From the NCBI GenBank assembly GCA_963736855.1, contig CAVTQK010000021.1, positions 753,929-817,928 of the forward strand: a stretch of DNA of 64,000 nt. The letters run 5' to 3'. The notes beneath the pieces are model-generated. The model did not search any database. It was not told the origin of the DNA and saw only the letters and a list, made by a program, of their open reading frames with translations. Below are positions 1,311 through 59,810 of this stretch, piece by piece. The stretch's first letter is position 1, and each line of letters starts with the position of its first letter. The translations under genes were made by a program, and so were the position numbers. Origin of the DNA: an uncultured delta proteobacterium (GTDB taxonomy: Bacteria > Desulfobacterota > Desulfobacteria > Desulfobacterales > UBA2156).

Positions 1311-1396
1311 GCTAAGGAGGTTTATCCCGCTGCAGGCGGGGCGCACTCAAAGCGAATCGGCTTGTCCGCTGTAGGCGGAGCATCCAGTTAGGGCGT

Positions 1397-1736
1397 CACA
1401 TCGATCTTGTCGTTTTTTGTTTTGCCGCCGTGGATCGCTTTCATGTATAATGCGTGTCCGAGAACAAACGGTATTTTGTGTGCGGCACAAAGGTCGGCAA
1501 CCCGTTGCCAGTCGAAGATCCCGCCTGAAAGGCGGGGCAGAAAACACATTCAACGCCGACCACGACATCTTTAATGTCAGCGGTGACATCACTTTACCGT
1601 CACAAGCGAAAGGGGGCAACCCGCAGGGCGTTTTCTGTGCGAGAATGGGCCCTTAATCAGCTCGTCGGAGCACAGAAAACAAACTGCGGTTAATTCAACG
1701 ATGCCTCCCTTTTTAGGAAGGCCATAACTAGTATCA
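1397..1736 (-). mobile_element. IS110-family remnant: left end plus N-terminal transposase fragment, inserted in an attC
   Basis: Minus-strand translation gives DVVVGVECVFC..W..VADLCAAHKIPFVLGHALYMKAIHGGKTKNDKID (IS110 DEDD domain motif as I recall it); 1600-1736 nearly identical to reverse complement of 58705-58840. Confidence 0.8.
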
Positions 1737-1815
1737 AGCGGGTCGAGCAGACCGGTAATTGTTCCTGCCTTTATTTGGGCTTGGCTGGCCAGGCTGCTCA
1801 CCCTTTACGTTATAA
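1735..1815 (+). other. Right part of an attC interrupted by the IS110 remnant
   Basis: CAAGCG GGTCGAGCAG ... CTGCTCACCC ... GTTATAA; R'' box displaced. Confidence 0.7.
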
Positions 1816-33714: not shown

Positions 33715-33888
33715 AGCCCCCTCCTCTTTTAGATAATCTTATATTCCTCAAGAAATCGTAGTTTAAAAATATAACCGGCATAAAATCTGTCAACCTAAAG
33801 AAAAGGGAATGTCAATTAAACTGCGGCATATTCCTCATAAATTGGCAATTGACAAAAGACGTTTCATGACTTAACAATCCCGAACATC

Positions 33889-34092
33889 GAACAGGTGCCA
33901 TGCCGGGGTAATGAACCCTTGCATTGGTAAAAGGAAAGCGTGGTGAGAGTCCACCGCAGGCCAGCCATTGCTGTAATCGGGGACGAACGCTGCAAGGATG
34001 CCACTGTCAGCCGATCGATTGAAAAAAGCGGATTGACTGATGGGAAGGCGCAGTCAGTAGGATGATCCATAAGCCAGAAAGCCTGCCTGTTT
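33889..34092 (+). ncRNA. Cobalamin riboswitch
   Basis: AGGTG..AAAGGAAAG.GGTGAGAGTCC..GCTGTAA..GCCACTG..TGGGAAGG..AAGCCAGAAAGCCTGCC; P1 AACAGG/CCTGTT; upstream of cobT. Confidence 0.9.
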
Positions 34093-34338
34093 GTTGTTGA
34101 AATAACGGGTATCATGCTGGATGTTATCCGTATCTTAGACTGCTGCCGGAGCCATGAGGATGCAGAAAAGATACGGAAAAGCGTTCAGCGGAGCTATCTC
34201 TTTTTACATCGAAATTTCTAACCTTTCGGCTCTACCCTCCCTTTTCCCTCCGGAAATTGCCGTCTGCAACGTCTTTGCCGTCTTTCCCGACCTCATCGAG
34301 GCTCAGTCGGTAAAAAATTTCAATGGAGGAATGTTCCC

Positions 34339-57807: not shown

Positions 57808-57966
57808 ACATAACGGCCGGGGCCAAGGCCCTCGTGGTTCTCTTCTTGCTGCGCGCCTCGATGACGCCGGGGATAACCGGCCTAAACCACGCTTCCAAAG
57901 AACTCCAGGCAACGCCACTAGATGCCCCCAGCGTGGTTTGGTTCCGCCTTGATACCCTGGTTAGGG
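57808..57966 (-). other. Long attC site (159 bp)
   Basis: ACATAAC..GGGCCAAGGC / GCCTTGATACCC..GTTAGGG on + strand. Confidence 0.6.
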
Positions 57967-58019
57967 CATTTTTAGGGCACGATTTGGAAAGTCATCTATT
58001 GTACACAGTATACAAGGCT

Positions 58020-58571
58020 CTATCCCAAACCTGCGATGAAATCATCTGTGCTGATAACCTTTGCATACACCTCGGCTAAGGCCGCCAGAAAAGCTGCATG
58101 GACCTGCTTGGCGGGAATTATGTCGCTATTAAAAGATAGGGTCCTGGTTGCACACGCGTCGTGTAAAACTGTGCACTGAAAACCATGGTCGAATGCGGCA
58201 CGAGTGGTTGCATCGACACACATGTGGGTCATCATACCAGCGATGACTACATGGGCTACGTTCTTCCTTCTTAGATGCTCCAGAAGAGAAGTGTCCCGAA
58301 ACGGGTTTGGATAGTGCTTCTGGATTACCAGTTCACTGGCAACTGGTTGGACATTGGGGTGAATTCCCACTCCTTCGGTTCCAGAGATGAAGAAAGAGGC
58401 CCCCGGACGGGCAGATATGTGTTGGATATGTGCTAATGGCAGGCCCTTCTCCCGGAACAGGTAGAGGACCTGTTTTGCCTTTTGACTTGCCTCGGGACTC
58501 CCTTCAAGTACCATCTTACCGCCAGGGAAGTAATCATTCTGGATATCGATTAACAATAGAACTGTATTCAT
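58020..58571 (-). CDS. Isochorismatase-family cysteine hydrolase
   Basis: IDIQNDYF, GMMTHMCVD. Confidence 0.9.
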   Translation of the reverse strand: MNTVLLLIDIQNDYFPGGKMVLEGSPEASQKAKQVLYLFREKGLPLAHIQHISARPGASFFISGTEGVGIHPNVQPVASELVIQKHYPNPFRDTSLLEHLRRKNVAHVVIAGMMTHMCVDATTRAAFDHGFQCTVLHDACATRTLSFNSDIIPAKQVHAAFLAALAEVYAKVISTDDFIAGLG

Positions 58572-58621
58572 GGTGTCCTTTCTTCCTACAAGATGAGTAT
58601 GTAGCGCGTAGACCAGCTGAG

Positions 58622-58860
58622 CCCTAGCGCTCCACATAAGCTGCGCCGCCTAATAAACATGTCGCGTAACGCCCCCGAGCTTCTCTGCGTCGGCTTAATC
58701 TGCTTGATACTAGTTATGGCCTTCCTTAAAAGGGAGGCAGCGACAATAACCCGCAGTACGTTTTCTGTGCTCCGACGAGCTGATTAAGGGCCCATTCTCG
58801 CACAGAAAACGCCCTGCGGGTTACCCCCTTTCGCTTGTGAAGGCCATATAGATGTTAGCT
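58622..58860 (-). other. attC site interrupted by the mini-element
   Basis: Removing 58707-58854 restores minus-strand AGCTAAC AAGCA GATTAAGC ... GCTTATG TGGAGC GCTAGGG. Confidence 0.8.
58707..58854 (+). mobile_element. 148-bp non-autonomous IS110/IS1111-like mini-element
   Basis: Subterminal 10-bp IRs TATGGCCTTC (58715-58724) / GAAGGCCATA (58839-58848); TG core at both junctions; shared with the IS110 remnant at 1.4-1.7 kb. Confidence 0.8.
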
Positions 58861-59721
58861 GGCTATCTTATGCTTCAAAAAAGTCCCACGCTGATATTCC
58901 GCAAACGCTTCTTCTAATTCGGCCTGCGTGTTCATCACAATTGGCCCATACCACGCTACCGGTTCATTCAACGGTTTCCCTGAAACCAATAGAAAGCGTA
59001 CGCTCTCCGCTTCCGTTGAAACAGTCACCCCATCCCCATCACCAAAAACGACCAGATTCTCAACGCCGATAGTGCGCTCCCGCACCGCATCAAAATACCC
59101 TTGCCCTTCAATTACATATGCGAACACCGTATATCCTGCCGGGACAGAATGAGTGAACGTCGTCTGGGCCGGTAGACTCACATCCAAATAACCTGGGTCA
59201 ATCACAATATTCTGGACCGGACCGCGCAGTTCATTGAATGGACCGCATATGAGCCGAATCTCAATGCCGTTCCCCAATCGAATCACCGGAATCTCATCTG
59301 CCGTGAGCCCCTGGTAGCGCGGCATCATCATTTTGTGGGTCGCGGGAAGGTTAGCCCAAAGCTGAAACCCCCATAACCAACCGTCTTCTCCCCCTTGGGG
59401 CATTTCCTGGTGAATGATGCCACTCCCGGCGGTCATCCACTGAACATCCCCCGCCGCAATCACTCCCTGATTCCCCATACTATCGCCATGGGCAACCTGT
59501 CCCTGTAATACATACGTGATCGTCTCGATCCCGCGATGAGGATGCCAAGGAAAACCAGAGAGATATTCATCTTGTTTATCCGAATGAAAATTATCCAGCA
59601 ATAAAAAGGGGTCAAGGCGAGGCTCCCGTCGAAAACCAAAGGCCCGCTTTAAATGTACGCCTGCCCCTTCCAAGGTCGGCTGGCTCTTGAATATTTGACT
59701 AACTTTTCTGGCTGTATCCAT
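58855..59721 (-). CDS. Pirin family protein
   Basis: DPFLLLD, HPHRGIET, WMTAGSGI.H.E, GPIVMNT. Confidence 0.93.
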   Translation of the reverse strand: MDTARKVSQIFKSQPTLEGAGVHLKRAFGFRREPRLDPFLLLDNFHSDKQDEYLSGFPWHPHRGIETITYVLQGQVAHGDSMGNQGVIAAGDVQWMTAGSGIIHQEMPQGGEDGWLWGFQLWANLPATHKMMMPRYQGLTADEIPVIRLGNGIEIRLICGPFNELRGPVQNIVIDPGYLDVSLPAQTTFTHSVPAGYTVFAYVIEGQGYFDAVRERTIGVENLVVFGDGDGVTVSTEAESVRFLLVSGKPLNEPVAWYGPIVMNTQAELEEAFAEYQRGTFLKHKIAS

Positions 59722-59752
59722 AGCGATTCTCCTTCACAATCTGCTGAGAGAT

Positions 59753-59810
59753 AGCTAACGCCAAAATCAACGGCGGTTGCAAGACGTCGGTTGTATAAGT
59801 CTTGTTGGCC
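59753..59810 (-). other. attC site (degenerate)
   Basis: AGCTAAC..CAAC/GTTG..GTTGGCC on + strand. Confidence 0.6.

Follow-up and report, generated by a model that had tools for sequence, protein, structure and literature searches.

The window, that is, the whole stretch of 64,000 nucleotides analysed here (G000:C21:753929-817928), contains a 148-bp insert that splits an attC site (copy B in Table 1). Very probably, this insert is an internally deleted, non-autonomous remnant of an attC-targeting, IS1111-type insertion sequence (IS) of 1.7-1.9 kb from the IS110 family, and the hairpin it carries is an accessory element that does not specify the target.

The insert, its parent element and its host site

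The preliminary description of this DNA had recognised a 148-bp insert with TG at both junctions, perfect 10-bp subterminal inverted repeats and a long internal stem, and all these features were found again. The left flank ends in TG and so does the insert, the repeats are set 8 nt in from the left terminus and 6 nt in from the right one, and the plus strand of the insert folds at -68.7 kcal/mol (z = -6.75), a value equalled by none of 200 shuffles. The hairpin is composed of an outer stem, a 3x3 internal loop, an 11-bp stem and a conserved apical region (58770-58800). The mini-element encodes no protein. Its termini, ATACTAG...ATAGATG, are the same ends as in 18 full-length relatives. Past the last base pairs of the left-end (LE) segment, copy A and the copy on contig C9 continue with CGGTAAA.., which is IS interior, and homology with copy B stops there. 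The LE segment and the right-end (RE) segment of copy B overlap by a 2-bp microhomology (GA), and the -35 TTGACA located upstream of the RE segment in full copies is deleted.

Table 1. Positions of the features described in the text; numbers without a contig name refer to the window
Feature	Position	Strand	Basis
Mini-element (copy B), non-autonomous IS remnant	58707..58854	+	92% identity to left end of C9 parent and copy A
LE-derived segment, 134 bp	58707..58840	+	homology to copy A and C9 IS as far as ..CGCTTGTGA
RE-derived segment, 16 bp, GAAGGCCATATAGATG	58839..58854	+	matches C9 RE CCGAAGGCCATATAGAAG|TTAGGC and family RE consensus
Left subterminal inverted repeat, TATGGCCTTC	58715..58724	+	sequence check, 10 bp, perfect
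Right subterminal inverted repeat, GAAGGCCATA	58839..58848	+	sequence check, 10 bp, perfect
Hairpin module, probably accessory	58747..58823	+	fold; R1 covariance model; stem covariation
Left flank, attC sequence beside R'' box, bottom strand, ends TTG	58694..58706	+	sequence check
Rest of R'' box (AGCTAA, cassette strand)	58855..58861	-	sequence; its TAA terminates the pirin cassette ORF
Degenerate R'-like box (ATTAGGC, cassette strand)	58648..58654	-	sequence; weak palindromy with 5' half
Upstream cassette ORF, pirin	58855..59721	-	Pfam PF02678 and PF05726
Downstream cassette ORF, isochorismatase family	58020..58574	-	Pfam PF00857
Copy A, rearranged truncated remnant of the same IS	1340..1734	-	homology; R1 match 1626-1684
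Candidate bridge/seek RNA in C9 copy	C9:680809-681008 (L008 2954-3153)		conserved words and covariation
Integron-integrase genes	C21:744805-745752, C24:200981-201931, C22:4704-5633, C13:157249-157968		TIGR02249 above cut-off

A DNA search of the genome gave three places: the insert itself, window 1597-1739 (92%) and C9:679362-679503 (92%). The last of these is the beginning of a near-full parent with the same ends (C9:679362-681255), which runs on into an IS110-family transposase gene (PF01548 and PF02371 match its two frames) and terminates 1.89 kb on at ..GAAGGCCATATAGAAG|TTAGGC. This result bears out the earlier suggestion that the insert is a transposase-free IS110/IS1111-type derivative, for which an IS110 parent with these ends had to be sought. 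An intact relative close to the C9 copy (P0001) matches the NCBIfam model NF033542 ('IS110 family RNA-guided transposase') with 173.7 bits, the cut-off being 140. The same end as in copy B is also present, as had been noted, at window 1734|1735 beside a fragment of an IS110-family transposase gene. This second remnant, copy A, is oriented opposite to copy B and contains an LE with hairpin, 172 bp of transposase sequence and 65 bp of the right non-coding end; its RE terminus is absent. The family transposase gave three matches at two loci of the genome (the C9 gene in two pieces and the copy A fragment), none of them intact; the assembly consists of 25 contigs, and an intact IS copy could be unassembled. 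The C9 gene is split by a 26-nt insert with a small hairpin (CCCGCC..GGCGGG; L003 about 1887-1912). The same frame-breaking insert occurs in copy A (window about 1490-1515) and is absent from the intact relative in G028, and therefore a broken allele was duplicated or moved.

The attC site is split, as the preliminary description had stated, but the cut does not fall right after the R'' box: it lies inside this box (cassette strand AGCTAA|C AAGCAG). The other attC sites of the right-hand array start with GCC(T/C)AAC(A/C)AAGGC on the cassette strand, and the insertion point is therefore RYYYAA|C, inside R''. These sites were read by eye from the intergenic stretches; three home-made attC finders yielded almost nothing. 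The interrupted site had also been called otherwise normal, which is not clearly the case, given that the presumed R' box is ATTAGGC and that the site rejoined in silico folds like its shuffles (-13.8 vs. a shuffle mean of -13.3 kcal/mol, z = -0.2). Its 3' half is poorly palindromic, and the target of copy B may already have been a decayed attC. The remnant separates the R'' box from the remaining attC, so that the pirin and isochorismatase cassettes are probably locked together, and attC function would have been lost at this site.

All three IS copies of the genome are antisense to the cassettes, as judged against the cassette ORFs and intI. Four integron integrases exceed the TIGR02249 cut-off in the 3.9-Mb genome; one is encoded about 8 kb upstream of the window, and three of the four are located at most about 5 kb from the end of their contig. 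The window itself contains parts of two cassette arrays, oppositely oriented, with about 40 kb of ordinary genes between them, among which a cobalamin riboswitch (RF00174, 75.7 bits) was observed at 33876-34104. Two toxin-antitoxin cassettes of the nucleotidyltransferase/HepT (MNT-HEPN) type are located at 1-655 and 779-1391, and the second HepT gene is truncated at its border with copy A.

Junctions, classification and right non-coding end of the family

An exact scan of genome contigs with a 15-mer of the LE gave at least 118 loci, including many chance 15-mers and some hairpin-less copies; among the matches listed, the LE hairpin is present in 14 copies at 13 loci. Desulfosarcina alkanivorans PL12 contains at least nine hairpin-bearing LE copies at different palindromic sites, the elements measuring about 1770 bp in the five copies that are long enough to measure. 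From all loci, 18 distinct full-length relatives of 1506-1986 bp were recovered. The left flank ends in TG in 18/18 of them and the right flank begins with TT in 17/18, in agreement with the targeting at TTG|TTRR of attC that had been proposed. The junctions of the family read ..TG|ATACTAG...ATAGATG|TTAG.. and fall within the R'' box of attC sites, the elements themselves being antisense to the cassettes. Full copies have at the right end a conserved CTTGACA, about 17-18 nt before the terminus, and on circularisation this motif would come to face GATACT at the left end, an arrangement that has been described for these families as the junction promoter.

These features allow the family to be classified. 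The parent protein carries DEDD_Tnp_IS110 and Transposase_20 and places the element in the IS110 family. The perfect 10-bp repeats fall within the 7-17 bp given for the subterminal inverted repeats of the IS1111 group (PMC11208160). In the published account (PMC3001079), IS1111-attC elements sit close to the 5' end of attC and are antisense to the array, and all three own copies are inserted at such a fixed point and in this orientation. According to the published descriptions, on which the comparison with ISPst6 and ISKpn4 was based, the IS1111-attC group (ISPa21, ISPst6, ISKpn4, ISPa25) shares with the present family the IS110-family DEDD transposase, the subterminal inverted repeats, a long downstream non-coding end and one fixed antisense insertion position (PMC3001079, PMC11187229). 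The present relatives differ from this group in their hosts, named as Desulfobacterales and Desulfosarcinaceae, and in that some members have an extra LE hairpin. The present transposase is less than 60% identical to the protein in each of 517 matching plasmid records (best 58.3%, next 31.2%, among the matches listed). A Klebsiella IS110 match (H9), which is not located in an integron, was rejected.

The bridge or seek RNA of IS1111-type elements is described as lying in the RE or downstream non-coding region (PMC11208160, PMC11187229). In the present family the right non-coding end is 530-652 nt long in hairpin-bearing and hairpin-less members alike and contains a block of about 210 nt that is closed by UCUGC...GCAGA and includes three covarying hairpins. 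When 13 distinct right-end sequences were compared, 11 of the 43 predicted pairs showed compensatory changes. The invariant single-stranded words of the block are CTAACTGG, AAGCC and GATGTTTGGTGCAGA. A covarying hairpin is flanked immediately 5' by CCUAAC and immediately 3' by CAAGCC, and AUAGAUGUUUGG is the third invariant unpaired word. Read in the sense orientation, CCUAAC and CAAGCC correspond to the R'' region of the cassette strand (GCCTAAC AAGGC), and AUAGAUGUUUGG corresponds to the right terminus plus the right flank (ATAGATG|TTAGG). Therefore, matches to both target strands exist in the block.

On the basis of its conserved words and covariation, this right-end structure of about 210 nt is the most likely guide RNA of the family. 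It resembles the bridge RNA of IS621 and the seekRNAs of ISEc11, ISKpn4 and ISEc21 in that it would be a structured non-coding-end RNA of an IS110-family element, with a multi-hairpin fold and conserved single-stranded target-like words. All family members share one target, so that guide-target covariation has no variation to draw on. The mini-element does not contain the right-end block, and copy A retains only its 65-bp piece (window 1340-1404).

The left-end hairpin as a separate module

The hairpin has an invariant loop, CUCCGACGAGC-N5-12-GCCCAUUCUCG, on a freely covarying stem of 12-25 bp. A 206-nt LE query matched 13 of 61 related genomes, most matches spanning a core of 31-61 nt only. 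Twenty-two examples were aligned; 14 of the 15 stem pairs had changed on both sides, and 92.4% of the cells were paired, as compared to 67.9% in shuffles and 32-55% with slid partners. The covariance model of the hairpin (R1) matches the three IS copies of the genome and nothing else in it (window 58756-58814, 76.8 bits; window 1626-1684; L003 1555-1613). Of 151 genomes sampled from the phylum, 13 have a match to the model, the own genome being one of these. The loop pattern was also found in four viral contigs and at least 119 metagenome contigs. The 99 distinct rows obtained from 100 listed loci have 92.4% of the cells paired vs. 56.3% in shuffles and 36-42% with slid partners, and 624 cells with changes on both sides vs. 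195 in shuffles; this alignment was fitted to the model, which favours structure, and the selection by loop only left the stem unconstrained.

The hairpin is present in some members of the family and absent from others. A scan of 401 genomes with a 16-mer of the LE, allowing one mismatch, gave matches in 37 genomes, many of them chance hits by the reversed-pattern control columns, and only hand-checked matches were used. Among 30 loci listed, 11 are real left ends without hairpin (85-90-nt leader), 6 have the hairpin or a decayed form of it, 11 are chance matches inside genes, and the other two are an 86-bp mini-element and a locus too short for classification. Two hairpin-less elements (L072 and L097) have the same junction as a hairpin-bearing one of D. 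alkanivorans (L062), to whose transposase theirs are 88% identical. Alignment of the leaders showed that hairpin-less and hairpin-bearing relatives differ by a clean indel of about 105 nt.

The same module occurs well outside this family. Five transposase queries were used to classify the contexts of 123 listed loci, which gave IS110 at 20, IS256 at 4, rve at 3, ISH6 at 1 and none at 95. In G088 and G126, an IS3-type element carries the hairpin after the orfB stop and before its right inverted repeat; in G051 and G013, the hairpin is located in the stretch from the element end to the start of an ISH6-family transposase gene. It was also found after tyrosine-recombinase genes. Among the matches listed, the nearest upstream frame is on the same strand at 60 loci and on the opposite strand at 21, and the median gap from this frame to a point 20 nt before the loop pattern is 31.5 nt, i.e. 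about 50 nt to the loop. Among the matches listed, 27 of the 28 classified contexts have hairpin and transposase gene on the same strand, and because of this strand bias an RNA element of transposase transcripts is favoured. At six loci (L229, L240, L261, L263, L267 and L278) very long stems of about 40 bp were observed, the outer part of which is DnaA-box-like (TTATCCACA, TTGTCCACA).

At the gathering thresholds of Rfam 15 no family covers the element, the cobalamin riboswitch being the sole match in the window; with E up to 10, positions 58600-58950 gave only sub-threshold matches of the miRNA-like kind and to PhotoRC-I. A full-text search, which cannot exclude one, found no published description of the module. 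Complements of the invariant loop words are not enriched in the own genome (50 vs. 46 for the control, and 65 vs. 57), and no obvious RNA-gene partner was found there. Pairing of the hairpin stem with the transposase mRNA was considered and dropped, since the common GTTTTCTG is absent in G028, whose stem differs. Tentatively, we regard the module as a structured RNA (or single-strand DNA) of a possible undescribed class that is widespread and resides in non-coding ends of unrelated transposon families. By analogy with ssr9 of ISPpu9, it may be a hitchhiker or a regulator of transposase transcripts.

Guide, hitchhiker or deletion remnant

The preliminary description had seen in the hairpin a minimal bridge or seek RNA whose loop pairs with attC, so that the 148 bp would form a mini-transposon that guides itself and is mobilised in trans. 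The hairpin does have a strong structure, IS110-group elements are reported to encode RNA in the left end (PMC11187229, PMC11208160), and the loop word at 58776-58788 does match the reverse complement of 58694-58706 at 11 of 13 positions. This match, however, is within chance: 27 of 400 dinucleotide-preserving shuffles of the 148 bp attained at least 11/13 within the 30-nt flanks on either strand, and 2 of the 13 positions match by construction. When the loop 13-mer was compared with the flank at 22 distinct hairpin-bearing insertion sites, the score was 11 at copy B, 8 at copy A (as already noted in the preliminary description) and 3-7 at the other 20 (7 at three, 6 at two, 3-5 at fifteen), and only 1/22 reached at least 9/13. 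Moreover, the loop words CGAGC and GGGCCCATTCTCG are invariant in unrelated IS families, and CGAGC, which recurs in IS3, IS256 and ISH6 contexts, supplies matching letters. The variable loop part of 5-12 nt, on the other hand, differs among elements with one and the same target (TGATTAA, TTATTAA, TGATTCA, AATTTTAA, TTTTTAATA, ACCTCTATT, AAATTGG, AATCCTAT). The loop thus does not behave as a target-complementary sequence that changes with the target. Nor would the hairpin be required for transposition or targeting, as natural hairpin-less relatives use the same target. In these respects it differs from the bridge RNA of IS621 and the seekRNAs of ISEc11, ISKpn4 and ISEc21: it has no target-matching variable loops, is optional and occurs outside the IS110 family. 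The reading of the hairpin as a minimal guide is already largely refuted, and we consider it highly improbable. The hairpin could, instead, be the structural arm of a two-part guide RNA, as the circle makes RE and LE contiguous and might yield one transcript or ribonucleoprotein. In fact, it is found in the right non-coding end, 200-460 nt past the transposase gene, at L244, L239 and other IS110-family loci, it lies downstream of the gene in 12 and upstream in 8 of the 20 IS110-family contexts listed, and it is nearly always on the transposase strand. But the relatives with an 88% identical transposase and the same target do without it, and it is also carried by IS3, IS256 and ISH6 elements, which are not known to use guide RNAs; a two-part guide is just as improbable.

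A hitchhiker of the MITE type has somewhat more in its favour, although we still regard it as unlikely. In this case the ends and the hairpin RNA would be spread by a family transposase and right-end RNA acting in trans, in the way in which ISPpu9 spreads MITEPpu9/ssr9. Copy B has an intact terminus and an intact subterminal repeat at either end, mini-IS constructs move in trans, and an independent 86-bp mini-element of the hairpin-less type is present at a palindromic attC-like site in another genome (L211, G330:C5:319600-320200, minus strand, about 411-326), so that remnants of this kind arise repeatedly. An IS110-family module without transposase that bears an sRNA, forms minicircles and is dispensable for transposition has also been reported (PMC12288879). 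Against this, copy B has the ends of a MITE but occurs as a single copy in its genome, and the G330 mini-element lacks the hairpin and is joined internally at another point. In run X3, the insert is in place on a 3056-nt contig that covers 57960-59796 and shows 59 differences, and the insert therefore predates a divergence of about 3%; the internal junction of the mini-element is also found in run X1, and no contig of runs X1-X4 joins across 58707-58854 as an empty site would. The hairpin has no end-like boxes of its own on its flanks; flanking inverted repeats of at least 9 nt were found at 14 of 94 metagenome hairpin loci vs. 4 of 94 shuffled flanks, which is no clear excess. With one copy, fixed in the ~3% diverged relative, and no intact transposase found in the assembly, there is no evidence for the mobilisation in trans that the preliminary description had assumed. 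In the published account, MITEPpu9/ssr9 of ISPpu9 is likewise a small transposase-less unit with IS110-family ends and an RNA-like module dispensable for transposition, and it is the closest published natural analogue of a mobilisable unit; it differs, however, in having 8 copies, its own A'/B' boxes and demonstrated minicircles (PMC12288879), whereas copy B is one copy, apparently made by internal deletion, with a hairpin that lacks end boxes.

The data are thus best described by the internally deleted remnant. The full element, 1.66-1.99 kb long, would be inserted into the R'' box of attC, where site-specific recombination would take place at a shared G or TG, the target being ..TTG|TTAGG.. 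on the IS strand and GCCTAA|CAA on the cassette strand, with the element antisense to the cassettes. A deletion between the 2-bp microhomology would then have taken out about 1.7 kb, comprising the transposase gene, the right non-coding end (the likely source of the bridge or seek RNA) and the -35 of the junction promoter, and would have left 134 bp of LE and 16 bp of RE, both subterminal repeats among them. The hairpin would be an optional accessory stem-loop in the 5' leader of some members, without a part in specifying the target. The deletion could also have preceded the insertion, the mini-element then having moved once as such; one copy cannot distinguish between these two orders of events.

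Laboratory mini-IS (ISEc11, LE 50-84 bp and RE 46-71 bp; ISEc21, LE 29 bp and RE 16 bp) also consist of ends only and move when transposase and RNA are supplied in trans. Copy B differs in being natural and in having only 16 bp of RE in an IS1111-type element, as compared to the 46-71 bp kept in the published IS1111-type mini-IS, and 16 bp may or may not be sufficient for recognition. Copy B is probably an inert, ordinary deletion remnant of a known kind of element, which freezes one cassette junction.

Copy B itself matters little, considering that attC-targeting IS1111-type elements, their RNA guides and their decay products are already known. There is natural evidence here that a structured RNA can be conspicuous in the leader of an IS110-family element without being the guide, which is a caution for automated bridge-RNA calling. 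The strongly covarying stem-loop, absent from Rfam 15, common to several IS families and abundant in metagenomes, is worth a study of its own. As for the family, the ends and the target of an attC-targeting group of IS1111-type elements in Desulfobacterales are now defined, and a candidate for its guide RNA is available in the right end.
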